DNA of 64,000 nt, from positions 148,514-212,513 of the forward strand of contig DATHJY010000011.1 of the NCBI GenBank assembly GCA_035489575.1. The letters are read 5' to 3'. The notes beneath the pieces were generated by a model. That model did no database searches and had not been told where the DNA came from. It worked only from the letters and a program-made list of their open reading frames with translations. This stretch comes from Verrucomicrobiia bacterium. Its GTDB lineage: Bacteria; Patescibacteriota; Saccharimonadia; Saccharimonadales; JAGQNK01. Of this stretch, positions 40,657-55,938 are shown piece after piece. Each line of letters begins with the position of its first letter. Positions within the stretch are counted from its first letter, which is position 1. Both the position numbers and the translations under genes were made by a program.

Positions 40657-41079
40657 GTGGCAGAAGCAAAGAAGAAGCGTCGCGTAGTCAAGCAAGTCGA
40701 GACCGTTCGCGAACAAGCAAATAAGGCTCAAGCAGCCCCAGCCAAAGAGCGACGTGCTCGCCGCACGGCATCAATCGCCGCCAAGCCCATTCGGGCAACT
40801 GGTCGAGTGGTCGCCAAAGGCGCCCGACCATTTAGTTTCCTACTAAAGCCCTTCAAGACCCGGCCCTTACGTTTTGTGGGACGTCTTTTGTATAAAATCC
40901 TCTTTATTGGATACTTCCGCAGCAGCTGGCAAGAAGTCCGCAAGGTAGAATGGCCCGGCAGTCGCGAAACCGTCAAACTGACCTTTGCGGTGTTTGTGTT
41001 TGCCATTACCTTTGGCCTGGTGGTAGCCCTGGTAGATTTTGGCCTGGATAAAGTCTTTAAACAATTACTATTGAGCTAG
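40657..41079 (+). CDS. secE: preprotein translocase subunit SecE (long basic N-terminus)
   Basis: GTG start with RBS CAGGAG. The C-terminal FRSSWQEVRKVEWPGSRETVKLTFAVFVFAITFGLVV is the SecE core TM. Confidence 0.8.
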   Translation: MAEAKKKRRVVKQVETVREQANKAQAAPAKERRARRTASIAAKPIRATGRVVAKGARPFSFLLKPFKTRPLRFVGRLLYKILFIGYFRSSWQEVRKVEWPGSRETVKLTFAVFVFAITFGLVVALVDFGLDKVFKQLLLS

Positions 41080-41097: not shown

Positions 41098-41640
41098 ATG
41101 ACGAAACGCTATGACGCCAGCAAACAATGGTACGCCATCCATACCTACAGCGGCTACGAAGAAAAGGTGGCTGAAAGTATCCGCCAACGCGCCGATTCTT
41201 TAGACATGAAAGACAAGATCTTTCAGGTATTAGTCCCCAAAGAAAAAATGATCGAAGTTAAAAACGGCAAACGCAAGGTTGTAGAAAAGCGTATTTTCCA
41301 GGGCTATGTTTTGGTTCAGATGAAGATGAGTGAAGACGCCTGGTATATTGTACGCAACACCCCTAGTGTTACTGGGTTTGTAGGCAGCGGCTCAGAACCA
41401 ACACCCGTTGGTAACGACGAGATGGAAAAGATCATGAAGCGCATGGGCCGCGAAGAGCCCAAGCACAAGATCGACTACCGCATTGGCGAAGTTGTGAGTA
41501 TTACCGACGGACCATTCAAGAGCTTTGATGGAACCATCAACGAGATTGACCCTGCCAAGGGCAAGCTAAAAGTCTTAGTTAACATGTTCGGCCGCGAAAC
41601 ACCGGTAGAGCTAGACAGTCTCCAGGTCAAACGCGTCTAA
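41098..41640 (+). CDS. nusG: transcription termination/antitermination factor NusG
   Basis: NGN motif KQWYAIHTYSGYEEKV and KOW motif GEVVSITDGPFKSFDGTI. Confidence 0.92.
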   Translation: MTKRYDASKQWYAIHTYSGYEEKVAESIRQRADSLDMKDKIFQVLVPKEKMIEVKNGKRKVVEKRIFQGYVLVQMKMSEDAWYIVRNTPSVTGFVGSGSEPTPVGNDEMEKIMKRMGREEPKHKIDYRIGEVVSITDGPFKSFDGTINEIDPAKGKLKVLVNMFGRETPVELDSLQVKRV

Positions 41641-41664
41641 GAGCCTGTTCCAGATCTCGCTTAC

Positions 41665-41910
41665 ATGGCTGACCTCACCCCCGAGGCCATAGCTACCGTA
41701 CCGTATCATGCACTAGAAAAAGGGCATGTGGTCTATTTGCAGCAACTTGATTTAGATGGACTTTCATCTGTTATTCGTGAGGCGCTTGCCCAGGACCCAC
41801 CCAAGACACACTCGTGGCGACTATTGGTGGCATGGGTATTGGAGCCTTCAGTGAAATCCCAAAAGTCCCGGGCAATGCCGGTGCCCCCTTACTCTTCGGT
41901 GCGCATCTGA
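41665..41910 (+). CDS. hypothetical protein
   Basis: 81-aa ORF with no RBS or motif recognised. Confidence 0.25.
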   Translation: MADLTPEAIATVPYHALEKGHVVYLQQLDLDGLSSVIREALAQDPPKTHSWRLLVAWVLEPSVKSQKSRAMPVPPYSSVRI

Positions 41911-41991
41911 TTGGGCAGCTCAGGCTGAACGAACGGCTCGGTCTTGAACCACCTTCGCCGGTGTAGAACTGTTGTGAGAATTCTTACATAG

Positions 41992-42020
41992 TTGCAAAAT
42001 TATAGTTATTTCTAAATACT
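41992..42020 (+). promoter_or_regulatory. promoter TTGCAA-17-AATACT, 7 nt before ATG
   Basis: -35 at 41992-97 and -10 at 42015-20, with ATG at 42028. An overlapping TATACT lies at 42020-25. Confidence 0.45.
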
Positions 42021-42027
42021 ATACTTA

Positions 42028-43227
42028 ATGACCATGCAAACTTATGTTGAGGGTGGCCAGGAAGTACTCGAACACTTTACTGCGCCCGCCGATGAAATCA
42101 AGGCGCCAGATACCGAATCGCCCGAGGAGCAATCAGCCGAAGAAGTAGGCTCGCTGACAGGCGACGAAGCTACCATGTCCTATGACGGACTGGCGTCGGC
42201 CACCACCCCAGAAGCTCCAGCCACGGACGACGCTGACATGAAAGCACGGATTGCCGCTCGCCGCGAAAGACGCCACCGTCGTATGCAAACAGGCCATCGC
42301 CAAGGTGGGGCCGATGCCCTAGGCGCATTCCTCAACGAAATCGGTACCGTCTCCCTCCTGACCGCAAATGATGAAAAGGAGCTGGCTCAAACCATAGAAG
42401 CCGGGCGTAAGGCCGAAAAACGGACAAACATGGCCCAAAAAGAGGGCCGCCCACCAGAAGACAAAGACCTAGCCACTATGACCGACGGTGCAGATGCAAA
42501 AAAACGTTTCATGGTGGCCAACCTGCGGCTGGTGGTTAGCATTGCCAAAAAATACCCCTTGCCGGCCAGCATGGAGTTACTGGATCTTATCCAAGAGGGT
42601 ATCCTCGGACTGGACCGTGCCGTGGACAAGTTTGACTGGCGCAAAGGGTTTAAGTTCTCTACCTATGCCACTTGGTGGATTCGCCAGGCAGTGGGCCGGG
42701 CACTTGACCAAAAAGGTAGCCTCGTCCGCATTCGTGGCGAGGCAGGCCCCAACCTCCGGCGGGCTCTCAGGGAAGGCGGCGAGGAAGCCCTAGATGGTGA
42801 ACTTCTGAGAGTCTACCGCATATCCAGCCCTTTTTCGCTGAATAGGCCGAGCGATCCGAATGAGAAAAAGCTAGAGTTTGGCGATATGCTTGCCTCGGAC
42901 GACAGCACCCCAGAAGACGTCGTGGTGCACGGCACCGGACTGTACCGTTCCATCGAAGAGACAAGCCATAAGATGACCGACGAACAACGTCAAGCTGTAG
43001 AAATGCGTTATATGGGGGACGACGAACCGCCCACCTTCGCCGAGATAGGCAAGGAACTGGGTGGCATCAGCGCAGAAGAGGCCAGAAAACTGACCGCCGC
43101 AGGCGTAGATGTATTGCGTGAACCTCTGGAAGTGCTCACCGAGTGGGCAAAGGCAGAAGCCCGGAAGAGAGAGCGCACCCAAGCACACAAGCGTAAGCGT
43201 GATGTACAAGCAGGCCAAGAATCTTAG
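42028..43227 (+). CDS. sigma-70 family RNA polymerase sigma factor, paralog 1
   Basis: Regions 1.2 and 2: FLNEIGTVSLLTANDEKELA, ANLRLVVSIAKKY, LLDLIQEGILGLDRAVDKFDWRKGFKFSTYATWWIRQAVGRAL. Region 4 is divergent. Confidence 0.85.
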   Translation: MTMQTYVEGGQEVLEHFTAPADEIKAPDTESPEEQSAEEVGSLTGDEATMSYDGLASATTPEAPATDDADMKARIAARRERRHRRMQTGHRQGGADALGAFLNEIGTVSLLTANDEKELAQTIEAGRKAEKRTNMAQKEGRPPEDKDLATMTDGADAKKRFMVANLRLVVSIAKKYPLPASMELLDLIQEGILGLDRAVDKFDWRKGFKFSTYATWWIRQAVGRALDQKGSLVRIRGEAGPNLRRALREGGEEALDGELLRVYRISSPFSLNRPSDPNEKKLEFGDMLASDDSTPEDVVVHGTGLYRSIEETSHKMTDEQRQAVEMRYMGDDEPPTFAEIGKELGGISAEEARKLTAAGVDVLREPLEVLTEWAKAEARKRERTQAHKRKRDVQAGQES

Positions 43228-43304
43228 CCTGTGCATAGAATTTCTCGCATTGCGGACTGGCCAGCCTCCGGGGATACGTGCGACAGCATGCCGAAGATAC
43301 TTAA

Positions 43305-43333
43305 TTGCAAAACTATACCACTTTTTAGATACT
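43305..43333 (+). promoter_or_regulatory. promoter TTGCAA-17-GATACT, 6 nt before ATG
   Basis: -35 at 43305-10 and -10 at 43328-33, with ATG at 43340. Confidence 0.45.
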
Positions 43334-43339
43334 AGCCTA

Positions 43340-44434
43340 ATGGAACTGCAAGCATGCGCAAAAACCGAACCGCTGGAATTCGCAGCCACAGAGGACACCG
43401 TTGAAGAAACGGTAGGTGAAATTGTCAGCGACGAAGCGCCCCTAGCACATAATGGGCTTGCACAAACCGTAATCCACCGCCAAATAGACACACCAGACGA
43501 CCGCGAGGCCGAGCGGGCCAGTCGCCAAGAAGCCGCTCGCCAAAGGCGGCAACACCGTCTGCGCAGCCCACGCAGGACGGGCCAAGACTCTATGAGCTGG
43601 TACCTAAGCGAGATTAGCGTGGTCCCACTGCTGACCAAGAAGAAAGAGATCGAACTAGCAAAAGCCATCGAAACGGGCCGTACAGCAACCGAGCTGATCG
43701 ACCAAGGACGTCGCTCTCGGAAACTTCACCAGACCGCGCAAGCAGGACAAGAAGCCAAGGATATCTTTATACGATCCAACCTGCGCCTGGTTGTCAGCGT
43801 TGCTAAAAAATACCGAGTACCACCGAGTATGGAATTACTAGATTTGATCCAAGAAGGCAATCTGGGGCTGGAGCATGCAGTTGATAAATTTGAGTGGCGC
43901 AAAGGATTCAAGTTCTCCACCTATGCTACCTGGTGGATCAAACAAGCAATCGGACGGGCGCTTGACCAAAAAGCCAACCTGATACGCCTGAAGGGCACTC
44001 TGCCAGGAGAACTACGCGGGGCGTTGGCAGCTCAGACACAAGGGTATGATGACACTACGGGCGAACAGCTCGAGGGTGAACTGGGCCTGGCCTATCGGGC
44101 CGCCACCCCCGCCTCTCTTAGCAATGGCAACGAAGATGAACCCGGGCTGGACAACCTGCTACCTTCGCCGCTCAAGGGACCCGAAGAGACCCTGATTGAC
44201 AACGCCGACAGAGCAACGCAGTATCAGTCCATCGAAGAGGCCGCTCACGCCATGAATCCTACACAACTAAGCGCAGTTAAACTGCGATATCTTGGGCCCG
44301 AAAAGCTCAGCTACCGAGCCGTTGGCGAGCAGTTAGGCGTGTCGCCCGAAGGAGCCAGACGCAATGTCATGAAAGGCCTGAAGATCATTCGTCAGGCACT
44401 AAAAGACCAAATCCAGGAGCCTGAGACTATTTAG
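43340..44434 (+). CDS. sigma-70 family sigma factor, paralog 2
   Basis: Start MELQACAKTE is chosen by homology to the paralog N-termini (MTMQTY, MTLQIY). SNLRLVVSVAKKY...STYATWWIKQAIGRAL. Confidence 0.85.
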   Translation: MELQACAKTEPLEFAATEDTVEETVGEIVSDEAPLAHNGLAQTVIHRQIDTPDDREAERASRQEAARQRRQHRLRSPRRTGQDSMSWYLSEISVVPLLTKKKEIELAKAIETGRTATELIDQGRRSRKLHQTAQAGQEAKDIFIRSNLRLVVSVAKKYRVPPSMELLDLIQEGNLGLEHAVDKFEWRKGFKFSTYATWWIKQAIGRALDQKANLIRLKGTLPGELRGALAAQTQGYDDTTGEQLEGELGLAYRAATPASLSNGNEDEPGLDNLLPSPLKGPEETLIDNADRATQYQSIEEAAHAMNPTQLSAVKLRYLGPEKLSYRAVGEQLGVSPEGARRNVMKGLKIIRQALKDQIQEPETI

Positions 44435-44460
44435 TCATAACGGCTAACATCTCATATACT
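44432..44460 (+). promoter_or_regulatory. promoter TAGTCA-17-TATACT, 6 nt before ATG
   Basis: -10 at 44455-60 with ATG at 44467. The -35 overlaps the paralog-2 stop codon. Confidence 0.4.
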
Positions 44461-44466
44461 TCTTTC

Positions 44467-45525
44467 ATGACACTGCAAATTTATGGCGAAGCTGCTAATT
44501 CCGGACTATCCCCTGAAGGTGAACCAGCAGGCTCACTGGCGGTAGAGGAATCCACGTTTGTCTATGAAGCCGCGCAAAGCGAACGGCTCCGGTCCGTCCG
44601 TGAAAGGCGGCACCTCCGTCTAGGCGGCTCCCGACCAGGGACGACAGATGCATTGAGCCAGTACCTATACGAAGTAGGAAGGTACGAACTCCTCACCAAA
44701 GAGGACGAGATACAGTTTTCTCAACAAATAGAAGCTGGCCGGGACGCCCTGCAACAAATCGAAAATGGCCAGGATGCCGTCGCCCATCGCCAAGCCGTAC
44801 GCCAGGGTCAAGATGCTCGTACCCAGTTCGTGCAAGGTAACCTGCGCCTAGTAGTCAGCATTGCCCTGAAGTATCCGATACCGCCCTCCATGGAACTCTT
44901 GGACCTCATCCAAGAGGGTAATATTGGGTTAGGGTACGCAATTGATAAGTTCGATTGGCAGTATGGGCTTAAATTTTCTACCTATGCCACGTTTGCGATC
45001 CGGCACGCCATTAGTCGTGGCATGGATCGCGCGGCAAACGTCGTACGTTTACCATCCGGCCTGCCAGCGCAGCTCCGAGAAGCCCTCCGGAATCAGACCA
45101 TGTGCCAGGGAGACCAGTCAGGCGACGACCTGCAGGGCGAAATGGGCAAGGCCTACCGAGCAGTCACTCCAACATCTCTAAATATGCCACTAGGCGAAGG
45201 GGACGACTCCGGCGAACTAGGCCAGATTATTCCGTCAGAAGGCCCCGGCACCGAAGAGCTGGCCGCCGCCAAGGTTCTTCAGCATGAAGTCCGCAAGCAC
45301 CTCGATAACGCCAGCCTCTCCCCCAAGCAAAAGTTAGCCATGCAACTGCGCTTTTTGGACCCGGATGACCCCGAGCCAACCTTTCAGGCTATCGGACAGC
45401 GTATGGGAGGCGTCACTGGCGAGGCCGCTAGAATGACCCTCGACCGCGCACTGGCCAGCTTTCAGCGCTATCTACGCAGCAATAATCTAGATGATAACCT
45501 ACTGGACAACAGAGGTGAGTTGTAG
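44467..45525 (+). CDS. sigma-70 family sigma factor, paralog 3 (most divergent)
   Basis: GNLRLVVSIALKY...LLDLIQEGNIGLGYAIDKFDWQYGLKFSTYATFAIRHAISRGM. Confidence 0.8.
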   Translation: MTLQIYGEAANSGLSPEGEPAGSLAVEESTFVYEAAQSERLRSVRERRHLRLGGSRPGTTDALSQYLYEVGRYELLTKEDEIQFSQQIEAGRDALQQIENGQDAVAHRQAVRQGQDARTQFVQGNLRLVVSIALKYPIPPSMELLDLIQEGNIGLGYAIDKFDWQYGLKFSTYATFAIRHAISRGMDRAANVVRLPSGLPAQLREALRNQTMCQGDQSGDDLQGEMGKAYRAVTPTSLNMPLGEGDDSGELGQIIPSEGPGTEELAAAKVLQHEVRKHLDNASLSPKQKLAMQLRFLDPDDPEPTFQAIGQRMGGVTGEAARMTLDRALASFQRYLRSNNLDDNLLDNRGEL

Positions 45526-45690
45526 TATAGTTGGTCCGTTACGCACTACAAACAAGGAGCACAGTAAAATAGGAATTTATTCATATTTTACGAGCATCCG
45601 CAGTTTGTATCGGTCCCGAAGGGACAGATACTAAAACGTAGGAGAACAGTCCAAGCTTCAATGGCACTGTTCGCAAAAGGAGAACTACTT

Positions 45691-46119
45691 ATGGCAAAAG
45701 CCATCAAAGCAAATCTAAAAATGAAAATTCGCGGCGGACAAGCCAGCGCAGCCCCACCCGTGGGTAGCACACTGGGTCAGTACGGCGTGAACATGATGGA
45801 TTTCATCAATCCCTTCAACGAAGGTACCAAAGACCGTCAGGGCCAAGACCTGACCGTCCATATTACTATTTTCGAAGACCGCACTATGGCCTGGCGCGTG
45901 GTCGGCACCCCAACCGACGATCTGATCCGCAAGGCATTAGGTGTCCAGAAAGGCTCTGGCCGACCCAACACCGAGAAGCTACCCAAGAAGCTGAGCGACG
46001 CTCAGCTAACCGAGATCGCCGAGACCAAAGCCGGCGACATGAACACCGACGATATCCCAGCCGTCAAAAAGATGGTAGCCGGCACTGCCCGCAGCATGGG
46101 CGTAGAAGTCGAAGGCTAG
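45691..46119 (+). CDS. rplK: 50S ribosomal protein L11
   Basis: MAKAIKANLKMKIRGGQASAAPPVGSTLGQYGVNMMDF. RBS AAAGGAG. Track ORF starts upstream at 45661. Confidence 0.92.
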   Translation: MAKAIKANLKMKIRGGQASAAPPVGSTLGQYGVNMMDFINPFNEGTKDRQGQDLTVHITIFEDRTMAWRVVGTPTDDLIRKALGVQKGSGRPNTEKLPKKLSDAQLTEIAETKAGDMNTDDIPAVKKMVAGTARSMGVEVEG

Positions 46120-46121: not shown

Positions 46122-46358
46122 ATGTCACCAGAAGCCGAACCAATGATCCATCCGCTAGACACAATGGAAGCAGCCGCTCAGGCTCTCCAGGACGCCCGAG
46201 ATCAGTTGAAAGAAGCAGGCGGCAACTTTAACAGAGCGCTACAGGCCGCACACCAAGTCTACGGCAGCCTAGATCCAGAGGACCGGCAAAATTTAGGACC
46301 AATAGCAGATGCAGTCATGCGTCAGAATAACAATGGCTATAGTCCCAACGACCGCTAA
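46122..46358 (+). CDS. hypothetical helical protein inserted between rplK and rplA
   Basis: 78-aa ORF that starts 2 nt after the rplK stop. GAAGG lies 8 nt upstream. Ala/Gln-rich. Confidence 0.4.
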   Translation: MSPEAEPMIHPLDTMEAAAQALQDARDQLKEAGGNFNRALQAAHQVYGSLDPEDRQNLGPIADAVMRQNNNGYSPNDR

Positions 46359-46417: not shown

Positions 46418-47437
46418 ATGGCAAAGAAAGCAGAACTACTAGAACAAGCCAAAGCACTTGGCTTGGAAGTAACCGATAAAAACACCATTGCAGAGCTAGA
46501 GACCGCAATCAAAGGCGCAGACACACCCCAAGAAGAGGTTGTTATCGCCGGCGAAGCAGCAGAAGCCGCAGTTGCACCCACAGAAGACGAAGAAAAAGCC
46601 ACCACCAAGGCTGGTAAGCGTAGTGTCAAAGGCGTCAAAGAAGCCGAAGAAAAGCAGGCGAAGCTAGAACGCCAACAGCATGCTGCCGAGGAAAAGGCAG
46701 AGGCCGACAAACCAAAGGTTCAGCAAAAGCCCGCTCGCAGCAAGCTCGAGCGCCGCAGCAAAACCTACCGCAAATTGGCCGAGCAGATCGAAAAAGGCAA
46801 AGCCTACAGCCTGACCGAAGGTCTGGATCTGGCTACAAAGACCAATCCTGTCAAGTTTGACGCAACCGTAGAGGTCCACATCCGCCTGGGCGTAGATCCT
46901 CGCCAGGCCGACCAGAACATTCGCGACACTCTGGTCCTGCCAGCCGGAACCGGCAAAGCCGTTCGCGTAGCCGTATACGCTGACGTTGACGATGTAGCCA
47001 AGGCCAAAAAAGCCGGCGCCGATATCGCCGCAGGCGACGAGTTTTTACAGCAGCTAGACAAGGGCACTATCGACTTTGACGTCCTGGTAGCCACCCCAGC
47101 TATGATGCCCAAGCTTGGTAAGTACGCTCGTATACTTGGTCCAAAAGGTCTCATGCCCAACCCAAAGAGTGGCACCGTTGCCGCTGACGTAGCCAAGGCC
47201 GTCACCGAGGCCAAAGCTGGCCGGGTAGAATACCGCGTAGACAGCACTGGTATTGTGCATGTTGGTATTGGCAAGGTAAGCTTTGGGGCTGACAAGCTGA
47301 CGCAGAATGCCCGCGCTTTGCTGACCAGCCTAAAGAACAACAAACCCACCAGCCTAAAGGGCACCTACATAAAGTCACTGTACGTGACCACCAGCATGGG
47401 TCCCAGCATCACCATCGAAACAACCGAAGCCAACTAG
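46418..47437 (+). CDS. rplA: 50S ribosomal protein L1 with ~105-aa N-terminal extension
   Basis: The canonical L1 core starts near [18 protein letters not shown]...[20 protein letters not shown]. No in-frame start lies near the core. Confidence 0.9.
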
Positions 47438-47505: not shown

Positions 47506-48261
47506 ATGGTGGTAATTGGAATAACCGGGCCTATCGGTCACGGTAAAACAACATTTGCAGATGCCCTGGCCCAACACGAGCCCTCTTTTTGCCACCTAGA
47601 AGCCAACATGGCCATCATCGAAGTGGCCAACGCCCTGCACGAGGTGCTACCCGCAGATATAAGCCCTCACCAGATCGATTCCATAAATGCCTGGCTGCAG
47701 TCACTGCCGGATATTCTGCAACAAACAGTAGGTGTTACGTGCTCTTTTGAGCAGATCGCCCTCACGGCCCAAGCCGTGCAGAACCAGCCGGCAGAGTATC
47801 AAAAGCTCATGTTGCACATCGAGAACCTGCAGCGCAATCCAGTCCTCGCCCAACAGGACATAACCGCCGACAACAAAACAAGTTACCGCCCATTTTTGCA
47901 GTGGCTCGGCGGCTATCTGGTGGCAAAAGTAGACCCGGGCATTTGGTTCAACGAAGTTGTGAGGCGCCTCCAGCACAGCCAGCAAGCAGGCTGCAAGGTA
48001 TGTATTATTGGTGGCGTACGCTATCCTTCGGATGCCAAAATACTACGCACAGCCAATGCCAAGATCATAGAGCTGTACCGCCCCGGGCACCTCCAGACCG
48101 ACACTCTCGATCCCACCGAACGCGAACGCGACAGTATCCAGGCTGACAGCACGGTTATTAGCAACGGCAGTGTCGAAGATTTGCAACACTGTGCCGCACA
48201 GATATTGCAGGACATTCAGACTGACAAGCTCCAGCAAACCTATCAGACAAAGGCGACATAA
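47506..48261 (+). CDS. P-loop NTPase, dNMP-kinase-like
   Basis: Walker A IGITGPIGHGKTTFA. GGVRYPSDAKILR resembles the dNMP kinase GVRfpnE block. Confidence 0.5.
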   Translation: MVVIGITGPIGHGKTTFADALAQHEPSFCHLEANMAIIEVANALHEVLPADISPHQIDSINAWLQSLPDILQQTVGVTCSFEQIALTAQAVQNQPAEYQKLMLHIENLQRNPVLAQQDITADNKTSYRPFLQWLGGYLVAKVDPGIWFNEVVRRLQHSQQAGCKVCIIGGVRYPSDAKILRTANAKIIELYRPGHLQTDTLDPTERERDSIQADSTVISNGSVEDLQHCAAQILQDIQTDKLQQTYQTKAT

Positions 48262-48262
48262 C

Positions 48263-48706
48263 ATGGCACACTACCGGACCCGCAAAGAAACCATCAGTTA
48301 CAAAAAGTATCTGCATGAGCGCAAAAAACAGGGCAAGGACAGTGACTGTATTTTTTGCGAGGTCGTGCCGGGCTTTCCGCAGTTTGTGAAAGAACTCAAA
48401 CACTTCAAAATCATTCGCAATATTTTTATGTACTCCAGTTGGGACGGCCAGGCCGTTCGTGAACACTTGCTACTCGTACCTCACAAGCACGTGAACTCAC
48501 TGGCACACGTTTCTAAGGCTGCTGCTCTCGAGTACTTTGACACCATCACTGCTTACGAAGAAAAAGGCTACCACGTGTACGCCCGGGGATCTGGCACCTC
48601 CACCAAGACCATCATTCATCAGCATACTCATCTTATAAAGCCGGCCGGCAAGCATCATAAGCTGGTCATCTTCCTGGCCAAGCCGTACATGCGTATTGTC
48701 AGATAA
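48263..48706 (+). CDS. HIT-family protein
   Basis: ATG 48263, 1 nt after the upstream stop codon. Histidine triad HQHTHLI and CIFC motif. Confidence 0.7.
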   Translation: MAHYRTRKETISYKKYLHERKKQGKDSDCIFCEVVPGFPQFVKELKHFKIIRNIFMYSSWDGQAVREHLLLVPHKHVNSLAHVSKAAALEYFDTITAYEEKGYHVYARGSGTSTKTIIHQHTHLIKPAGKHHKLVIFLAKPYMRIVR

Positions 48707-48794
48707 GCCCCACCTGTAGTTGTATTATTGTACTAACGCTTGCATCACAGTTTTGACACCCCGTACAATACATACACATTAGAGGGAGTAATCA

Positions 48795-49496
48795 GTGGAC
48801 CTTGAAGGTACAGGGGTTTATAGCAACAGCCAAATAAAAGCCGCCATTTCAGACGGTCATATTGTATTTCACCCTTATATAGAGGACCACATTGCCGGCA
48901 GCAGCGTGGACGTGACCTTGGGCCACTGGTTTTATCGTACCGAGCGCAATGGCCACAGCGGCTTCTACAATCCGTTCGACGAAAGCGACGTCCGGCGTTA
49001 CTTTGACGGACCGTTCCATGCCGACACCCACGATTTTTGGGCGCAAGCCAATGGTCGCAAGCCCTTTGGTGGCATCCCGCCAGACCATCCCATTATTATT
49101 CTGCGGCCGGGCGAACGTATCCTGGCCCACACCCATGAATTCATCGGCATCAAAGCCCCTGGCACCAGCACCATGCAAGCCCGCAGCACGTGGGGCCGCA
49201 ATGGCGTGGCCGTCTGTCTGGACGCCGGGTGGGGGGACCCTGGCTATATCAACCGCTGGACCATGGAAATCTACAACATGAACCAGCACGAGAGCGTTGT
49301 GCTGCCGGTAGGCGAACGCATTGCCCAAATGGTCTTTTACCATACCGGCCCCGTGGACGGAGAATACAAAAACCTCAGCGGCAAATACCAGTCAAATGAC
49401 AGTGAAAACCTAGTAGACATCATTAACAATTGGCGCCCTGAGCAAATGCTGCCGCGAGCTTACAAAGACACCCGCCGCAAACCGAGGGAAGTGTAA
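48795..49496 (+). CDS. dcd: dCTP deaminase/dUTPase-superfamily protein
   Basis: GTG start with GGGAG upstream. SSVDVTLG, the trimeric dUTPase-fold motif GWGDPGY and the ERIAQMVF block. Confidence 0.75.
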   Translation: MDLEGTGVYSNSQIKAAISDGHIVFHPYIEDHIAGSSVDVTLGHWFYRTERNGHSGFYNPFDESDVRRYFDGPFHADTHDFWAQANGRKPFGGIPPDHPIIILRPGERILAHTHEFIGIKAPGTSTMQARSTWGRNGVAVCLDAGWGDPGYINRWTMEIYNMNQHESVVLPVGERIAQMVFYHTGPVDGEYKNLSGKYQSNDSENLVDIINNWRPEQMLPRAYKDTRRKPREV

Positions 49497-50311
49497 TGGG
49501 TGCAATTGACCAAGATCCATGGTTTTTGAGTGACAAGCTAGAAGGCAAATACCCCGTTGCATCGCCAGATGAGTTGGCCGATGAATGGCACGCCTACACA
49601 GAACGAGAAACGCACGCACTACAGGGTGTGTTAGGTGCCTACGCCAAACCTGTCGGGGAAGTATGTGCCGTCGCCTCTATCGATTTATGCGAAGTAACGC
49701 GTGACACAGCCGTAAGCCTTGGCGATTTGGTCGGCGAACCACTCGAACGCGGACAGTACTCAGAGGGCACCTGGTATTCTGTCGAAAACATGGGGTTAGA
49801 TTTTGAATACTCAGTCGTACTTGGTGGGCTCCAACACCTCATGAACAACGACCTCGTAGGAGCCATCCCAGGAATTGACGAGGTGAGCCACACCTTGCGT
49901 GGCTGGCGAGAGCAAGGCGTCTATATGGCGGCCAATACATCTACCTTGCCCGGCTGCGAACTTGCTACTATCCGTCATCACCTCGAAAAAGATCTGAAAG
50001 GATGCTTTGACGCCCTTCTTCTACCTCGCAACTACGACGGCAGAGGGAAAATGACCAAGGCGCAGGCTCTGGATGTGCTCGGCCAAGAAGCCGGGATAGA
50101 CATAGGGGCGCTGCCACTGGTACACATTGACGACGCTACCCACCATGTCCAGGGATTTATTGATCACTTCGGGGACCATCCGACAAGCGCATTCCTAATG
50201 CCAGCACACAACTACAACCAAGCACCCGTGGCAGAGATGCGCTGCGAAGATCCGCCTGAGGCATTCGCACGAGCACACGAATTCTTACAAAAACAAGGAG
50301 TACTGCAATGA
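49496..50311 (+). CDS. hypothetical protein, possibly HAD/NT5C-like nucleotidase fold
   Basis: Overlapping start and stop with both neighbours. IDLCEV aligns where DxDxV is expected, and HIDD occurs late in the sequence. Weak. Confidence 0.35.
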   Translation: MGAIDQDPWFLSDKLEGKYPVASPDELADEWHAYTERETHALQGVLGAYAKPVGEVCAVASIDLCEVTRDTAVSLGDLVGEPLERGQYSEGTWYSVENMGLDFEYSVVLGGLQHLMNNDLVGAIPGIDEVSHTLRGWREQGVYMAANTSTLPGCELATIRHHLEKDLKGCFDALLLPRNYDGRGKMTKAQALDVLGQEAGIDIGALPLVHIDDATHHVQGFIDHFGDHPTSAFLMPAHNYNQAPVAEMRCEDPPEAFARAHEFLQKQGVLQ

Positions 50312-52644
50312 GCGAAAAAGGTGTGTTTCTAGTCATCGAGGGCACTGACGGATCAGGCAAGGGTACCCAGTTTAAATTGCTAGAGGAACACTTACGCCAG
50401 CAGGGTCACGACGTGGTGACGTGTGATTTTCCACAGTACGATCAGCCCTCTAGCTTTTTTGTACGCGAATACCTAAACGGCAAGTACGGCACTGCGGACG
50501 AAGTAGGCCCCTATACCGGTTCGCTCTTTTACGCCCTAGACCGCTACCACGCTGCCTCCCAGATCCGGGAAGCTCTGGAAGCCGGCAAGGTAGTGCTAGC
50601 CAACCGCTTTACGGGCAGCAACATGGCCCACCAAGGCACCAAGTTCAACCACGCCGAAGAACGCCGGGGCTATTTTATCTGGTTGGACAACCTCGAGTTC
50701 CAGATGCTGGGCATCCCGCGCCCAGACAAGAGTTTCGTACTCCGGGTGCCAGCCGAGATCGCCCAAAAACTAGTAGACCAAAAAGAGCAGCGCAGCTACA
50801 CCGATAAAAAACGCGATATCCACGAGGCCGACCTAGGCCACCTGCAAAAAGCCGTCCAAGTCTACGATGACCTATGTCAGCTATTTCCCAAGGACTTCCA
50901 GCGGCTGGACTGTGTGCGAGGCGACACACTGCTTTCTATCGACCAAGTTCAAAATATGCTCCGCAAAACTATCCAGCCACTGCTACCAAAACCAGCTGGC
51001 AAGAAATCAGCTGCCACCACGGCAAAAGCCCCCAGTAGTATCAAGAAGCCAGACAACCCGTACGTCAAAAAGACCAGTCATGGCTGGGAAGTGACAGAGG
51101 CCGGCAAGCAGTTCCTAGAAGCAGCCATAACCAACGTAGACGGCGATGTCTATGCCTTCAAAGATAAGCTAAGCACGCTTACGGTGGCAGCAGCCATGGC
51201 CAGACTCAGTCGCCGCGGGGACGACATGCGTGTCACCATGCTGGACGAATTTGCTATGCACGAGGGCAAAGACGAAGGCCTGATCCACCGCGTAATTACC
51301 GCCTATGGGGACGACTCCGTCCAACAGCTAGTGGGCCAACACATCGTGGTAGAGAACGCTAGCAACCTACTGACCAAACAGCTCGAATGGGGACGCTTGG
51401 CGTCCTACCTAGAACAGTCCACCCGCTATATTTACTTTGACCAGAAAGATGCCAAAGGGCAATACAAATACTACACACCAGATCATATAGATGAGCTGAC
51501 CACGGCCAAATACACCGCCACCATGGATAGCATTTTTGACACCTACTCGTCCATGGCCCGCGATCTGACAAATTATTTGCAGATCCACTCATCTACCCCC
51601 AAAGAAGAGCAAGACGGTGCCTGGCGCGGGGCCATCCGGGCTCAAGCCTGCGATGCCATCCGGGCAACGCTGCCCGTAGCCACCAAGTCTACCGTGGGTA
51701 TTTTTGCCAGCGGCCAGGCGCTAGAGATGCTTATCATGCGTCTGCGGGCCAGCGAAAGCAAAGAAGCCCAAGCCGTTGGCGAGCAAGTTCTGCAAGAAGC
51801 CCGCAAAGTTATCCCAACCTTCCTGGAGCGAGCCGACAAGCCCGAACGTGGTGGTGCCACCACCGCCTACCTGTCTGACAACCGCAAAGCCATGAAGTCA
51901 GTGGCCAATCGATACCTACCAGACACCCACAGTAACGGCCACCAAGCCGTTACCCTGCACAGCGTCTGGCCCCGCAAAGAACTAGACCTGGTGCCACACA
52001 TGCTCTACGAATCGACGCAGCTGTCACTAGAAGAAATCACCAAAGAAGTAAACACCTGGCCCATAGACAGAAAGCTCGAAGTATTCAACACCTACATAGG
52101 AGAGCGCCTGAATCGCCGGCACCGTCCGGCCCGGGCATTGGAGCAGGCACACTACACCTGGGATCTGCTGTGTGACTACGGCATTTTCCGTGACCTGCAG
52201 CGCCACCGCATGGTGGACGACCTACAGTGGCAAGCGCTGACCCCCCGATACGGCTACGAAATACCCAAGCTGGTAGAAGACGCCGACCTGACCGAATCGT
52301 TCGAGAAGTGTTTTGACCTGTCTGCCAGGTTGTATTCCACACTCCAGGCCGCCGGCTATCTCTACGAAGCCCAGTATGCCACCTTGTTGGGACACCGCAT
52401 GCGCTGGAAGATTACCTATAATGCCCGCGAAGCATTTCACCTGCACGAACTGCGTACCAGCCCCCAGGGACACCCCGGCTACCGCAAACTCGTGCTCGAA
52501 ATGCACCAGAAACTGGCCGAGGTTCACCCCATGCTGGCCGAAGCCATGAAGTTTGTGAACCAAGGGGAAGACCCCGAGCTAACCCGTCTGGCAGCCGAAC
52601 GCTACACCCAGTTCAAGCTGCAGCAGATGCCGGAAAATATCTAA
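50308..52644 (+). CDS. fusion protein: thymidylate kinase plus large FAD-dependent thymidylate synthase (ThyX-like)
   Basis: N-terminal FLVIEGTDGSGKGTQ...DRYHAASQ...NMAHQG is Tmk-like. C-terminal ~560 aa carry FRDLQRHRM and NAREAFHLHELRTSPQGHPGYR, which are ThyX-type blocks. Confidence 0.75.
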   Translation: MSEKGVFLVIEGTDGSGKGTQFKLLEEHLRQQGHDVVTCDFPQYDQPSSFFVREYLNGKYGTADEVGPYTGSLFYALDRYHAASQIREALEAGKVVLANRFTGSNMAHQGTKFNHAEERRGYFIWLDNLEFQMLGIPRPDKSFVLRVPAEIAQKLVDQKEQRSYTDKKRDIHEADLGHLQKAVQVYDDLCQLFPKDFQRLDCVRGDTLLSIDQVQNMLRKTIQPLLPKPAGKKSAATTAKAPSSIKKPDNPYVKKTSHGWEVTEAGKQFLEAAITNVDGDVYAFKDKLSTLTVAAAMARLSRRGDDMRVTMLDEFAMHEGKDEGLIHRVITAYGDDSVQQLVGQHIVVENASNLLTKQLEWGRLASYLEQSTRYIYFDQKDAKGQYKYYTPDHIDELTTAKYTATMDSIFDTYSSMARDLTNYLQIHSSTPKEEQDGAWRGAIRAQACDAIRATLPVATKSTVGIFASGQALEMLIMRLRASESKEAQAVGEQVLQEARKVIPTFLERADKPERGGATTAYLSDNRKAMKSVANRYLPDTHSNGHQAVTLHSVWPRKELDLVPHMLYESTQLSLEEITKEVNTWPIDRKLEVFNTYIGERLNRRHRPARALEQAHYTWDLLCDYGIFRDLQRHRMVDDLQWQALTPRYGYEIPKLVEDADLTESFEKCFDLSARLYSTLQAAGYLYEAQYATLLGHRMRWKITYNAREAFHLHELRTSPQGHPGYRKLVLEMHQKLAEVHPMLAEAMKFVNQGEDPELTRLAAERYTQFKLQQMPENI

Positions 52645-52657
52645 TTATTTAACCTAA

Positions 52658-52686
52658 TTTACAAAAAAGCATAAATACAGTATAAA
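52658..52686 (+). promoter_or_regulatory. promoter TTTACA-17-TATAAA
   Basis: Upstream of GC-rich ORF 52756. A GTAGTCAC-cg-GTGACTAC hairpin lies in the 5' UTR. Confidence 0.45.
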
Positions 52687-52755
52687 TATACTCTTGTACG
52701 GTAGTCACCGTGACTACGAGTTTCATCGCCCTTTCCCAGCAAGGATGGTTTACCC

Positions 52756-53487
52756 ATGTCCCGAAAGCACCTACTGGCTGTAGTCCTCGGAGTGTTCGTG
52801 GGAGTGTTCGCGCTCCTCGCAGGGGCTGGACTCGCCGTCGTACTCCTGCCGTCCGACCCTGAGCCGTCGATCACCATCGAGTCCATCAACGGCCAGAGCA
52901 CGGCCAACGAAGACGCCAGACTGGACAAGCTGCAGGAGCACTGCTCCGGCGACTTAGGCCCTGACGGCATCGCCAGCAAGCTGGACACCGCACCCCTGAC
53001 GCTCAACGACGAGCTGGTCTACATGGTCTACGGCGACGAAGTCACCGCGCTCAACCCACAGGCACTCGTGCAGTGCGACTACGAGGCCCCCGTGGGTGAC
53101 AGCTACGTCTCGGTGTCGATCGACGCCACGTCGTTCGACGACGGCCAGGCGTACTGGGACAAAGTCATCAGCAACACCTGCGAGGGTGGCTGTGACGAGA
53201 ACGAGCCCAGCGACCACCCCAACAACGTGGACGACTCGTTCGTGGTGGATGGCAACCACGCCACCTTCATCAACGTCAAGCGTGAGCGAACGGACTTCGA
53301 CGGTCCGCAGTCACCCGTCGGCACGCTCATGGTGGTCAGCACCATCCAGGGAGACACCGAGTGCTCGGCCGTCTTCCGCACGGGAGACATCCAGCCCGAG
53401 AGCTTCACGCGGGTCACGGACACGCTCCGCGCGTTTGCAGATCAGGCCTGCGAGCTCGCCGCACAGTCGTCCACGGACGAGACCTGA
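52756..53487 (+). CDS. GC-rich membrane-anchored or secreted acidic protein, hypothetical
   Basis: N-terminal TM LLAVVLGVFVGVFALLAGAGLAVVLL. Strongly GC3-biased codons. GGCCGGGTGG/CCACCCGGCC hairpin downstream. Confidence 0.55.
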   Translation: MSRKHLLAVVLGVFVGVFALLAGAGLAVVLLPSDPEPSITIESINGQSTANEDARLDKLQEHCSGDLGPDGIASKLDTAPLTLNDELVYMVYGDEVTALNPQALVQCDYEAPVGDSYVSVSIDATSFDDGQAYWDKVISNTCEGGCDENEPSDHPNNVDDSFVVDGNHATFINVKRERTDFDGPQSPVGTLMVVSTIQGDTECSAVFRTGDIQPESFTRVTDTLRAFADQACELAAQSSTDET

Positions 53488-53678
53488 AGTTGGCTTGGCC
53501 GGGTGGGTGGACACTGTCCATATACCAAACCACCCGGCCATTCGGCCCTTATTCTGCCAAGAAACTACCGTACACTTTTCCAGAGCGCTGCATATATTTG
53601 CAGCTCTGTGGCAAAGTTATTCAAATAAATAGATACGACCTTCGTCTATGCCCGTTTGCAGCGCGGCCAACAGGGCAG

Positions 53679-53969
53679 TCATGCCCACGGGGCGCTCACG
53701 CGGGATTGCCGGTAGGTCAATCCGCCGCCGGGCCTGGCGCCGGTCCACTGACCTGGACGATTCAACTCGTTGTTGTTGCGCTCGCATAGCTTCTTCACAA
53801 CCGCCTCATCAGAGAAAAAGGCGCTGTCCATGTCTTCCAGCGACTCATAACCCATAATCTCCCACATGGGTCGCCTGTCGTTTGACGCAACCACGGGAAT
53901 GGTGGGTGCTACCTCAATACCCGGCGGTACAAGCAGTTCACACGTAGGGTCTCTTTCGATAAGGCTCAT
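53679..53969 (-). CDS. hypothetical protein
   Basis: 96-aa ORF with no motif. The 3' part is in GC-rich sequence and its extent is uncertain. Confidence 0.3.
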   Translation of the reverse strand: MSLIERDPTCELLVPPGIEVAPTIPVVASNDRRPMWEIMGYESLEDMDSAFFSDEAVVKKLCERNNNELNRPGQWTGARPGGGLTYRQSRVSAPWA

Positions 53970-54141
53970 AGTATTTTCTTTCTCTTATATCTTACTGTTT
54001 TTATGGGTAATGTGACAACTGGAGGATGGGGCTTGGAGTGATTGGTGGTGTCCTAAGACGGACAATGGCCGTGTGCGCCACTAGCCTGGGACGATCCCAA
54101 ACTCCCACCAACCGGCGTACTTCTACATGCAAACGTCCCGA

Positions 54142-54423
54142 CTAGGCCACCGCCAGGCGAGCTCTCTTGGGTGGCACGTACCGAATGCGCGTCCAGCCCG
54201 CTCGCGGATGGCCCTTGCGGTACTTGCGCAGCCTCAAGCGATCGACCTGCTTCATGGCTCTCAGGGCAACAGCGATTTGGTCAAGAGTGACACCCTTGAC
54301 GTCTATGTCATTGCGAAAGTTGGCGAGGTCTCCGTAAACCACCGAGCCTTTTCTCTTCATGAAGGTTTCAATAGCACGTTGGATGTACGCCTGCATTGCA
54401 TTGTCTTGTCGGGCCAAGGCCAT
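54142..54423 (-). CDS. hypothetical basic protein
   Basis: 93-aa ORF with a strong RBS (CTGGAGGA directly before the ATG). Basic C-terminus. Confidence 0.4.
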   Translation of the reverse strand: MALARQDNAMQAYIQRAIETFMKRKGSVVYGDLANFRNDIDVKGVTLDQIAVALRAMKQVDRLRLRKYRKGHPRAGWTRIRYVPPKRARLAVA

Positions 54424-54771
54424 TCCTCCAGTTGTCGTGTTCTAACTTACAAAGCCAGAACTGGTGCTATCCCCCCTAAGGGATCTATGGAAGTCAGTGC
54501 TCCCACCCAGTGAACTTGGTAGTGTAGACAAGTCCACTGGGCGGATTCGCTGACTGTTGCGAAAGTGTGGGTTAAAAAAACCGGATCCAGCCTTATGGTT
54601 GGATCCGGTAGAGTTTTGCTTTGTTGCTGTGTATTTCTATGCGGCGTTACCAGTTCCAACCATTTTGTTCCAAATGAGCACATAGCCAAACACTTGGCGT
54701 AGATTGTGCTTCATAGTGGTGGTTGAACTTTGGTAGGTCACGGTAAAAACTTTACGCTATAGCCCGATCAG

Positions 54772-54800
54772 TTGTCAAGCCTGGGTGCTTATGGTATGAT
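54772..54800 (+). promoter_or_regulatory. promoter TTGTCA-17-TGgTATGAT
   Basis: -35 at 54772-77 and extended -10 at 54792-800. ATG of the leader ORF is 10 nt downstream. Confidence 0.55.
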
Positions 54801-54810
54801 CCACCCCATT

Positions 54811-54891
54811 ATGCGTTTTAACCATGCTAACAGTTTGCTCCTCCTCAGCCTTAACGGGCTGTGCTTCAGCAGGGTTGAAGCCAAGGGTTAG
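54811..54891 (+). CDS. putative Leu-responsive leader peptide (26 aa)
   Basis: MRFNHANSLLLLSLNGLCFSRVEAKG. Four consecutive Leu codons at 54835-46 and two more downstream. Embedded in alternative hairpins. Confidence 0.5.
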   Translation: MRFNHANSLLLLSLNGLCFSRVEAKG

Positions 54892-54920
54892 CGCCCTCTT
54901 GCACAGTCCAAAACCAAAAA

Positions 54921-54944
54921 AGGCTTCAACCAGAAGTCTTTTTT
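54921..54944 (+). terminator. attenuator terminator
   Basis: AGGCTTC-aacca-GAAGTCT followed by TTTTT. The 5' arm can alternatively pair with TTGAAGCC at 54875-82. Confidence 0.6.
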
Positions 54945-54963
54945 AACTTTTTAGGAGAAAATT

Positions 54964-55200
54964 ATGGCCGCCGAAGGATTAACAGTAGAGCAGGGCGTAT
55001 TAAGAGACCCGAACATGGCAGATGCAGAGCACACTCGACGCGTTGCCACGCTCTCGGGGTACCCCAGCATGCAACAAAGAATAGCAGCAGCCTCTATGGA
55101 TAAGGTTGATACAGTGCCGGTAGACGAGGTAACGGATATTCCTGATCTTGCCCGGCGGATGGCGATTGCTAGTACTGTGACGGTCGATCACGTCCTGTAG
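54964..55200 (+). CDS. hypothetical small acidic protein
   Basis: 78-aa ORF with RBS TAGGAGAAA. Confidence 0.45.
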   Translation: MAAEGLTVEQGVLRDPNMADAEHTRRVATLSGYPSMQQRIAAASMDKVDTVPVDEVTDIPDLARRMAIASTVTVDHVL

Positions 55201-55205
55201 GGTCG

Positions 55206-55234
55206 TTGACAAAAAAACAGAAGGAGAGTAACTT
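55206..55234 (+). promoter_or_regulatory. promoter TTGACA-17-TAACTT, 7 nt before ATG
   Basis: -35 at 55206-11 and -10 at 55229-34, with leader ATG at 55242. Confidence 0.4.
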
Positions 55235-55241
55235 AAGCCTC

Positions 55242-55289
55242 ATGACACAGAGACAGCTCGTGATTGAGGTGGTGATTCTCCCCGGCTAG
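55242..55289 (+). CDS. putative branched-chain amino acid leader peptide (15 aa)
   Basis: MTQRQLVIEVVILPG. Seven of eight central codons are Leu, Val or Ile. Confidence 0.5.
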   Translation: MTQRQLVIEVVILPG

Positions 55290-55328
55290 CGGGTCTCTTG
55301 TGCATGCCTAAAGATTTTGACAAGAAAC

Positions 55329-55356
55329 ATCCCGCGAAACCCGCGGGATTTTTATT
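55329..55356 (+). terminator. attenuator terminator
   Basis: ATCCCGCG-aaacc-CGCGGGAT followed by TTTTTATT. GCGGG at 55289-93 can pair with CCCGC at 55331-35 as an antiterminator. Confidence 0.65.
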
Positions 55357-55376
55357 ACAAAGATAAGGAGTAAGAC

Positions 55377-55574
55377 ATGAGCGCAGAAACAGAACCAGGA
55401 ATACCAAACTATATGAATGGTGAGGTACTTGCACTGTCCGATACAGACACCCCGGCAACCGAACCGGAAATTGACACGGACACTCCCGTTCAACCGCACG
55501 CTGACGCCATCGATGACATTCGCAACGAGCGAAATTCCAACTACGGCTATGGCGGGGAGAACTTCGGTGTCTAA
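55377..55574 (+). CDS. hypothetical small acidic protein
   Basis: 65-aa ORF with a strong RBS (AAGGAG). Overlaps the ridA start. Confidence 0.4.
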   Translation: MSAETEPGIPNYMNGEVLALSDTDTPATEPEIDTDTPVQPHADAIDDIRNERNSNYGYGGENFGV

Positions 55575-55938
55575 GGTATTTGGCCCCTACAGCCCCATCA
55601 GACAGGCCGGAAGCCTGTACTACGTGTCTGGGCAAGTAGGCGTGGACCCAGACACCAACCAGTGCGGCCACACCATAGAGGAACAAACCGGACAGGTTAT
55701 GGCCAACATGCAGACAGTTCTAGCATCCGCAGGACTTGATATAAGTGACGTAGTCAAATGCACCATCTACCTCAAGGATATGAGCGACTTCGCAAAAATG
55801 AACGACGTCTACGCTGGCTTTTTTGAGCCGCCATTCCCAGCCCGCGGTACCGTAGCCGTAAAAGACCTGCCGCACGTCGGGGGCGAGGCAAATATTCTGG
55901 TAGAGATCGAAGCCATTGCTTATAAGGAATCAGCGTGA
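55549..55938 (+). CDS. ridA: RidA/YjgF-family reactive intermediate deaminase
   Basis: FGPYSPIRQAGSLYYVSGQVGVDP...PARGTVAVKDLP...VEIEAIA. Start is ATG 55549, or GTG 55567 which has GGGGAGA upstream. Confidence 0.8.
   Translation: MAGRTSVSKVFGPYSPIRQAGSLYYVSGQVGVDPDTNQCGHTIEEQTGQVMANMQTVLASAGLDISDVVKCTIYLKDMSDFAKMNDVYAGFFEPPFPARGTVAVKDLPHVGGEANILVEIEAIAYKESA

Follow-up and report, generated by a model that had tools for sequence, protein, structure and literature searches.

Three divergent sigma-70-family genes between nusG and rplK in a Saccharimonadales genome

The window analysed here is a 64-kb stretch of DNA (64,000 nucleotides (nt); contig DATHJY010000011.1, positions 148,514 to 212,513), whose open reading frames (ORFs) were listed and whose proteins were searched against Pfam, NCBIfam and PHROG. 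Three same-strand genes for sigma-70-family factors, named sigma-1, sigma-2 and sigma-3, lie in tandem between nusG and rplK (Table 1), and the ORF listing reproduced exactly the coordinates that an initial annotation had given for them. All three reading frames are intact and encode proteins of 352–399 amino acids (aa). Their codon usage is fully host-like and their GC content is also like that of host genes, which rules out recent horizontal transfer of the array. The arrangement was assembled independently twice, in Logan contig L003 and in a 267,912-bp NCBI contig; together with one syntenic relative, these assemblies rule out an artefact. At least 80 species with the title Saccharimonadales or Saccharibacteria have a NusG that matches the window protein at 86–93% identity (at least 580 relatives confirmed among 600 candidate stretches), and these species conserve the order hisK - GT2 - secE - nusG - rplK - rplA - dNMP kinase. 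Gene content, synteny and NusG identity place the window in Saccharimonadales (TM7, Patescibacteria), and the label 'Verrucomicrobiae bacterium', which NCBI gives to this metagenome-assembled genome from soil (sample SRR7026570), is probably wrong.

Table 1. Coordinates of the sigma array, its promoter-like sites, its flanking genes and other features of the window.
Feature	Coordinates	Strand	Description
sigma-1	42028..43227	+	399 aa; type A; WW dyad intact
sigma-2	43340..44434	+	364 aa; WW dyad intact; region 4.2 SPEGARRN
sigma-3	44467..45525	+	352 aa; type B; TYATFAIRHA; region 4.2 TGEAARMT; C-terminus LDNRGEL
TTGCAA-17-AATACT	41992..42020	+	Predicted promoter; ends 7 nt before sigma-1 ATG; no Shine-Dalgarno
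TTGCAA-17-GATACT	43305..43333	+	Predicted promoter; ends 6 nt before sigma-2 ATG; resembles sigma-1 site
TAGTCA-17-TATACT	44432..44460	+	Predicted promoter; ends 6 nt before sigma-3 ATG
TGGACA-17-TATAGT	45503..45531	+	Predicted rplK-rplA promoter; 10/12 matches; overlaps sigma-3 end
secE	40657..41079	+	140 aa, basic N-terminal extension; Pfam SecE 6.3e-16; upstream synteny anchor, kept in 80 Saccharimonadales loci
nusG	41098..41640	+	180 aa; Pfam NusG 3.3e-30
ORF81	41665..41910	+	81 aa; doubtful gene
rplK (L11)	45691..46119	+	142 aa; Pfam L11 N- and C-terminal domains; AAGGAG Shine-Dalgarno
ORF78	46122..46358	+	78 aa; small lineage-specific ORF in rplK-rplA interval; codon signal +0.19
rplA (L1)	46418..47437	+	339 aa, ~130-aa N-terminal extension; Pfam Ribosomal_L1 3.3e-59, residues 141-329; downstream synteny anchor
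T4-type dNMP kinase	47506-48261		Between rplKA and rplJL
dCTP deaminase	48795-49496		Between rplKA and rplJL
Thymidylate kinase-ThyX fusion	50308-52644		778 aa; between rplKA and rplJL
Acetolactate synthase	55935-57650		Between rplKA and rplJL
Threonine dehydratase	59449-60942		Between rplKA and rplJL
L10 leader (Rfam)	62102-62238		Precedes rplJ and rplL

Regions 1.2–2.4 of the three proteins resemble those of group 1/2 sigma factors. Pfam recognised region 1.2 (Sigma70_r1_2; E = 1.5e-10, 2.4e-09 and 5.9e-10 for sigma-1, sigma-2 and sigma-3, the order used throughout) and region 2 (Sigma70_r2; E = 3.5e-18, 1.9e-18 and 9.2e-13). Region 1.2 is accompanied by the full FSTYATWWIRQA motif, and regions 2.1/2.2 are intact (NLRLVVS..., LDLIQEGN). 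The shared traits listed in the initial annotation were all present: related N-termini (MTMQTY, MELQAC, MTLQIY), an acidic stretch and a basic RRERRH-type patch in every copy, and the motif TYATWWI(R/K)QA in sigma-1 and sigma-2. Its counterpart in sigma-3 is TYATFAIRHA, with the W-dyad changed to FA and the equivalent of Q437 to H; at these two places sigma-3 deviates, while regions 1.2 and 2.1–2.4 are otherwise close to group 1 in the Pfam matches and in the alignment with SigB and HrdB. None of the proteins matched region 1.1 (PF03979), for which the acidic N-terminus, predicted to be disordered, may be a functional analogue.

Downstream of region 2 the proteins depart from known sigma factors. 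No match to Sigma70_r3 (PF04539) was found in any of them at E <= 0.1, and the spacing from region 2.4 to the P-x-S-L motif is 48, 55 and 55 residues compared to 67 in canonical factors. Region 3 had initially been described as replaced by a short linker lacking the RIPVH motif. The motif is indeed missing, its equivalents being VRIRGE, IRLKGT and VRLPSG, but the domain is truncated rather than replaced: an AlphaFold2 model of sigma-1 (mean pLDDT 78, with a confident sigma-2 domain) has two short helices (239–250, 257–266) where the three-helix sigma-3 domain is expected, and an acidic segment resembling region 3.2 (EFGDMLASD) is still present. Sigma-1 is laid out as an acidic disordered segment (1–61), a basic helix (68–88), region 1.2 (96–129), region 2 (~156–234), the truncated sigma-3 domain (235–270), region 4 (~295–365) and a long C-terminal helix. 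Sigma-2 carries a 7-residue insert in region 3 that it has in common with sigma-3 and with P0162, a homologue from a second genome described below.

Region 4 is atypical, as the initial annotation had noted. Sigma70_r4 scores were weak (27.1, 17.0 and 19.5 bits with a cutoff of 24.1, so that sigma-2 and sigma-3 fall below it), and the region 4.2 helix reads SAEEARK, SPEGARR and TGEAARM in place of the canonical TRERIRQ. Within this helix every copy keeps E585 and R588, while R584 is replaced by A, P or G, Q589 by K, R or M, and the next residues also differ. The copies are 43, 39 and 40% identical in pairs; identity peaks in region 2 (62–76%, with sigma-2 76% identical to sigma-1) and is lowest in region 4 (22–33%), where sigma-3 is 22–26% identical to the other two copies. 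Pfam thus recovered neither a normal region 3 nor a normal region 4. The NCBIfam equivalogs for RpoD, SigA, SigB and RpoS all scored far under cutoff, the best values being 178, 169 and 153 bits on TIGR02997 (cutoff 384.5), while the superfamily-level model TIGR02937 was passed and phrog_351 was matched at 1e-45 to 1e-52. With every RpoD/SigA cutoff missed, the initial view that the genes are non-canonical and that none is an orthodox RpoD stands.

To find relatives, we compared an HMMER profile of the family-specific C-terminal half exhaustively with 1.84 billion cluster representatives; a word-indexed protein search was swamped by generic sigma-70 proteins and was not used for counting or naming members. 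The profile found 94 proteins at E <= 1e-10, of which four, the three window sigmas and P0162, reached E <= 1e-30. The spacing from region 2.4 to P-x-S-L is 46–55 residues (mostly 48–51) in about 75 other members and 67 in canonical outgroups, and the alignment shows a clean deletion of 16–17 residues in regions 3.0/3.1 with IRLPVH replaced. In region 4.2, members have another residue in place of R584 and fit the pattern (S/T)-x-E-x-A-R-(R/K), apart from sigma-3, whose last position is M. About 80 members agree in the short spacing and in the xAExARR helix. In a neighbour-joining tree of 84 sequences (100 bootstraps, with a narrow outgroup of four canonical Acidimicrobiia sigma factors), the family was monophyletic with 100% bootstrap. 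On these alignments, the three sigmas belong to a wider, previously unnamed subfamily between groups 2 and 4, which we call short-sigma-3, and neither the family nor the arrangement turned up in our search of the literature on sigma factors of Saccharibacteria and on those without region 3.

The closest relatives lie at the same locus of a second genome, where P0002 and P0162 stand side by side between nusG and rplK. Sigma-1 pairs with P0002 (88% bootstrap; 46% identity) and sigma-3 with P0162 (77%; 42% identity), while sigma-2, which is 44% identical to P0162 and 42% to P0002, joins the sigma-3/P0162 pair weakly (46%). Orthologs of sigma-1 and sigma-3 are full-length in the second genome at 42–49% identity, and this orthology places at least one duplication before the split from the two-copy relative. 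The three tandem paralogs reported initially are real, but the triplication is not recent: at 39–43% identity the copies are old. Nor is the family lineage-specific, as had been proposed, since it also occurs in Acidimicrobiia, in single copy at the same locus of other Saccharimonadales, and on phage contigs. A separate observation concerns the C-terminus: the motif LDNRG(E/K)L (45502-45522 in the window) is common to sigma-3, P0162 and the otherwise distant sigma of locus L039 (L039:2614-2634), and could be a docking or degradation tag.

By comparison with the recognised sigma groups, the best solved-structure matches, both by sequence (8e-39) and by fold, were group 2 factors of Actinomycetota (Mycobacterium tuberculosis SigB, PDB 7pp4, and Streptomyces HrdB-type proteins); Foldseek and the sequence search of solved structures placed M. 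tuberculosis SigA/SigB and Streptomyces HrdB nearest. The window sigmas are like them in region 1.2, in near-canonical regions 2.1–2.4, in an acidic region 3.2 finger and, once the N-terminal extension is removed, in length. They differ in a sigma-3 domain shorter by about 17 residues (one helix) with no Pfam region 3, in (V/I)R(L/I)(P/K/R)(G/S)x for IRLPVH and xAExARR for TRERIRQ, and in missing all equivalog and subfamily cutoffs. The short sigma-3 domain and altered region 4.2 set them apart from group 2, in which regions 3 and 4 are conserved enough for group 1 promoters. Group 1 is marked by matches to RpoD/SigA models, a complete region 3 with H455 and E458, a canonical region 4.2 and region 1.1, a combination the window proteins do not show. 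With extracytoplasmic function (ECF, group 4) factors they have in common the lack of a Pfam region 3 and the match to TIGR02937; unlike that group, which has the sigma-2 and sigma-4 domains only, no region 1.2 and reduced regions 2.3/2.4, they carry region 1.2, group-1-type regions 2.3/2.4, a two-helix remnant of the sigma-3 domain and a 3.2-like finger. No recognisable anti-sigma gene was found near the array. Phage sigma-70 homologues (PHROG 351) resemble them in the phrog_351 matches, and true subfamily members occur on phage contig L092, but the window array has no phage neighbours, carries N-terminal extensions and sits in conserved chromosomal synteny.

We then considered the locus in relatives, using the 76 other species with both flanks on one contig. 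The nusG-rplK distance varied continuously from 13 to 3353 bp, and the 4054 bp of the window is the largest. Longer gaps hold ORFans (up to 794 aa) that are unrelated to one another, many of them small Cys-containing proteins right after nusG. Among the loci L004–L083, examples of ORFans downstream of nusG are L006:10634-13018, L008:1381-2583 and L031:11013-12227. The junction had initially been taken as normally contiguous and highly conserved; in Saccharimonadales it is neither. A sigma gene occupies it in five of the 76 species (L005, L015, L039, L049 and L070), always in single copy, so the check for common carriage among relatives left the arrangement uncommon, and 71 species have no sigma gene there. 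One, two and, in the window only, three copies were observed. We also looked up six family members from the protein search, and all five with readable context lie after nusG and/or before rplK: P0002 (together with P0162), P0163 (between the two genes), P0173 (likewise; its contig of 1.05 Mb is probably a complete genome), P0280 (next to nusG on the downstream side, where the contig ends) and P0166 (immediately before rplK, in a short contig with a truncated ORF of no assigned identity as the 5' neighbour). For the sixth, P0210, the contigs are too short for neighbours to show. The occupied locus goes together with an N-terminal extension in the window, the P0002 contig, L005, L015, L039, L049, L070, L084, L085, L086 and L087. 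The nusG-rplK gap is thus a hypervariable insertion site in Saccharimonadales, with the sigma gene as a recurrent, minority occupant. Within this set L005 ranks among the nearest of the 80 species when flanking genes are compared by identity; its sigma gene (L005:6385-7506) is degenerate in regions 2.1/2.2 and 2.4 (YGVPWIRQLA), has an extra helix-turn-helix (HTH)-like C-terminal tail, and may be decaying or neofunctionalised.

These distributions bear on whether any copy could be the housekeeping factor. The cultured Saccharibacterium Southlakia epibionticum, whose genome is complete, has one true sigma factor in its transposon-sequencing (Tn-seq) table, RpoD SEML1_0063, a protein of 332 aa with Pfam regions 1.2, 2, 3 and 4 that is essential and lies beside the DNA primase gene dnaG (PMC10633639 supplement). 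Its nusG (SEML1_0420) and rplK (SEML1_0419) are adjacent, 137 bp apart, and a protein annotated 'RpoS' consists of region 4 and HARE-HTH only (PMC10633639 supplement). SEML1_0063 resembles the window sigmas in phylum, in regions 1.2, 2 and 4 and in compact size, but differs in its full region 3 (PF04539, residues 174–254), its essentiality and its place next to dnaG. Since 71 of the 76 species lack a sigma gene at the locus and every member with readable context is found there, most of the order lacks the family and must use another sigma. The initial annotation had implied that the genome might lack an orthodox primary sigma; the cultured relative and the 71 species speak against this, and likewise against one of the three being the essential sole or major sigma of the cell.

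It is nevertheless conceivable that one copy, most plausibly sigma-1, has become the housekeeping sigma of the lineage in place of the dnaG-linked RpoD, with the other two as alternative factors. Sigma-1 has an intact W-dyad and an acidic N-terminal region that could substitute for region 1.1, its regions 1.2–2.4 are of primary type, the automatic annotation of the Joint Genome Institute (JGI) names P0002 'primary sigma factor', the promoter-like sites of the window are canonical in type, and no further sigma gene lies within the 64 kb. This replacement is distinctly unlikely in our judgement, as the species without a sigma gene here must use another one, the essential RpoD of the cultured relative has region 3, the RpoD equivalog models all fail widely, R584 and the extended -10 contacts are lost, and the gene evolves fast and is frequently lost, unlike a primary sigma. 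Sites resembling TTGACA-17-TATAAT, which the initial annotation had read in the window (for example at 9800–9828), are in fact enriched (38 sites, compared to 19.4 +/- 4.6 in shuffled sequence), and this enrichment fits a canonical primary sigma encoded elsewhere. By analogy with cultured Saccharibacteria, the housekeeping gene would lie next to dnaG.

Taken together, we read the three genes as functional accessory sigma factors of a distinct subfamily rather than as the housekeeping factor, with a probability of about two in three. Several points weigh on the other side. We infer the canonical rpoD of this genome from relatives. No target promoters were identified for the three sigmas. The divergence of region 4 among the copies (22–33% identity) could be a sign that constraint has relaxed, not that specificity is new, and sigma-3, without its W-dyad, could be impaired. 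Except at a few nodes the neighbour-joining tree is bush-like and poorly resolved. The single-copy relative in L005, degenerate in regions 2.1/2.2, shows that such genes decay in some lineages, and the leaderless placement described below is not kept in orthologous loci, as L087 and L084 have Shine-Dalgarno-like sequences.

If the three proteins do act as accessory factors, their residues suggest how. Assignments of residues to promoter bases follow Escherichia coli sigma-70 numbering and established structural and genetic work. Each sigma would bind core RNA polymerase through conserved regions 2.1/2.2, as expected because these are intact. Sigma-1 and sigma-2 would melt and read a TAnnnT-type -10 element through regions 2.3/2.4, because they keep F419, Y430, W433, W434 and Q437, while all three are predicted to be unable to use an extended -10 TG, because the equivalents of H455 and E458 are lost. 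Since R584, Q589 and the next residues are changed and differ among the copies, each would read a -35 element unlike TTGACA and unlike those of the other paralogs. In sigma-3 and P0162 the loss of the W-dyad, together with Q437H in sigma-3, would alter the preference at the upstream -10 and weaken autonomous melting; H at Q437 is known to change the preference at -12. As to history, one family gene may have entered, or already sat in, the nusG-rplK gap of ancestral Saccharimonadales, diverged fast and been lost in most species, and in the lineage of the window tandem duplication would have given two and then three copies.

Each gene has its own promoter-like site upstream (Table 1). No Shine-Dalgarno sequence precedes the three sigma ATGs, while rplK and rplA have AAGGAG-type sites, which suggests that the sigma mRNAs are leaderless. 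With a separate site in front of every paralog, positioned as for a leaderless mRNA, the three are probably expressed independently. TTGCAA-N16-18-ATACT occurs twice in the 64 kb (0.2 expected), before sigma-1 and before sigma-2, so that the promoter was apparently duplicated along with the gene. The predicted rplK-rplA site is followed by a leader of about 160 nt and an AAGGAG Shine-Dalgarno.

A different explanation is that the extra copies, sigma-3 above all, are duplicates in decay that retain hardly any function, if any. Besides the lost W-dyad and the low identity of its region 4, sigma-3 falls under the Pfam region 4 cutoff together with sigma-2, and the L005 homologue is visibly degenerate. 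We consider such decay very unlikely: none of the three reading frames is disrupted, their codon signal is normal, and P0162 also lacks the W-dyad (ATSTIRQY) and ends in the same LDNRGEL. Because P0162 keeps the unusual features and C-terminus of sigma-3 across about 58% sequence divergence, sigma-3 appears to be under selection.

Outside Saccharimonadales, the family occurs in Acidimicrobiia. Their version is about 276 aa long, without the N-terminal extension (P0014 from Microthrixaceae, P0015 from Acidimicrobiia), in a conserved context with a nadD-LytR-rsfS block on one side and DAHP synthase on the other. It has the identical region 3 truncation and the same region 4.2 motif as the window sigmas, is 48–51% identical to sigma-1 in the core, and forms a joint clade with them (100% bootstrap); it differs in lacking the acidic/basic extension, in an FW rather than WW dyad, in its other context, in being single-copy and in its extreme conservation. 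A metagenome scan with a degenerate DNA pattern for the family-specific motif, in which the taxon was inferred from sequence type and not from labels, showed the gene to be very common (at least 120 contigs listed). Among the matches listed, all 120 contigs (L171–L290) were Acidimicrobiia-type, with GC of 0.35–0.75, and none was a Saccharimonadales locus; the proteins are 276–300 aa long, and region 4.2 (GVTAEAARRLV(K/S)RA) is nearly invariant in those contigs carrying the region. These sequences suggest a widespread, slowly evolving and uncharacterised sigma factor of Acidimicrobiia. One Acidimicrobiia-type protein, P0164 (620 aa), has an insert of about 340 aa between regions 1.2 and 2 that resembles a DnaQ-type 3'-5' exonuclease domain, either through a genuine fusion or through an error in gene calling.

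Family members also occur in viral sequence. On the genuine phage contig L092 (IMGVR_UViG_3300042987_003640, 1128-9613), which encodes a terminase large subunit, an endolysin and an HslV-like peptidase, a short-sigma-3 gene is directly followed by ThyX, and the GC content of 0.53 equals that of the window; further members lie at L091:1450-2283 and on the phage-like contig L090:5313-6155. L091 and L092 came from an IMG/VR scan with a broader alignment, a three-sequence C-terminal alignment having matched nothing. In a tblastn search against 50,697 sequenced phages only generic sigma similarity was found, at no more than 37% identity. The array could accordingly be mobile or phage-derived cargo in an insertion hot spot, serving the element (in transcription takeover or defence) and not host regulation. 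Such an origin would explain the phage members, whose contigs have the GC of the window (0.52–0.53), the unrelated ORFans that gather in the gap, and the patchy distribution in Saccharimonadales. We regard it as unlikely. Near the array we found no repeats beyond the paralogy itself, no tRNA genes that could serve as a target, no integrase and no other phage (PHROG) gene; codon usage is host-like; the phages searched offered generic similarity only; and the same locus is filled in at least 11 divergent genomes, which favours long residence over repeated insertion.

An accessory role for the three factors, the reading we prefer, leaves room for exchange in the past. Since the family is common to Saccharimonadales, Acidimicrobiia and phages, horizontal transfer would have been involved somewhere, though the tree is star-like with strong rate differences and the direction cannot be read from it. 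Regulation in Saccharibacteria and other Patescibacteria is generally regarded as minimal. In culture, Saccharibacteria grow as epibionts of Actinobacteria (PMC10633639), and a family common to Acidimicrobiia and Saccharimonadales is noteworthy for that reason. A tentative and rather doubtful extension is that the short-sigma-3 family is a transcription module exchanged among Saccharibacteria epibionts, actinobacterial hosts (Acidimicrobiia) and the phages of their consortium, expanded here, in an epibiont lineage that normally has a single sigma factor, to three variants of promoter specificity for programmes of host contact or life stage. If true, this would add a level of regulation not previously described in ultra-small bacteria of the candidate phyla radiation (CPR). 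Three extra, diverged sigmas would show a much richer transcriptional repertoire in some environmental Saccharibacteria than in the best-studied cultured strain, with its one true sigma. The subfamily is also a natural experiment, as it keeps a primary-type sigma-2 domain while one sigma-3 helix, the extended -10 contacts and R584 are lost, and it is missed by Pfam region 3 and every NCBIfam equivalog. Its spread over Acidimicrobiia, Saccharimonadales and phages offers a concrete clue to genes passing between epibionts and the phylum to which their hosts belong, and within Saccharimonadales the nusG-rplK gap proves to be an insertion hot spot.

Several neighbouring features complete the description of the locus. 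The start of rplK at 45691 is the true one, as tblastn alignments of relatives begin at the same methionine. ORF81, already called doubtful in the initial annotation, had no Pfam, NCBIfam or PHROG match and no homologue in 89 related loci except the copy from the same genome, and its in-frame codon log-likelihood was -0.10, compared to +0.16 to +0.54 for real genes; because it has no homologues outside its own genome and a weak codon signal, it stays doubtful. ORF78 had no family match and is unrelated to the small ORFs at the equivalent position in L086 and L087. ORF81, ORF78 and these equivalent ORFs are mutually dissimilar and match no family, and were rejected on that ground as anti-sigma or partner genes. 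The basic N-terminal extension of SecE (40657-40900) and the Lys/Glu/Ala-rich extension of L1 (46418-46810, about 130 aa) both vary in length among Saccharimonadales. The rplKA and rplJL operons, which are usually contiguous, are about 15 kb apart in the window (47506-63370). A tRNA-Trp gene, which commonly precedes secE-nusG, lies at 31061-31134 on the minus strand, 9.5 kb upstream of these genes and in the opposite orientation, a further sign that the classical cluster is fragmented.

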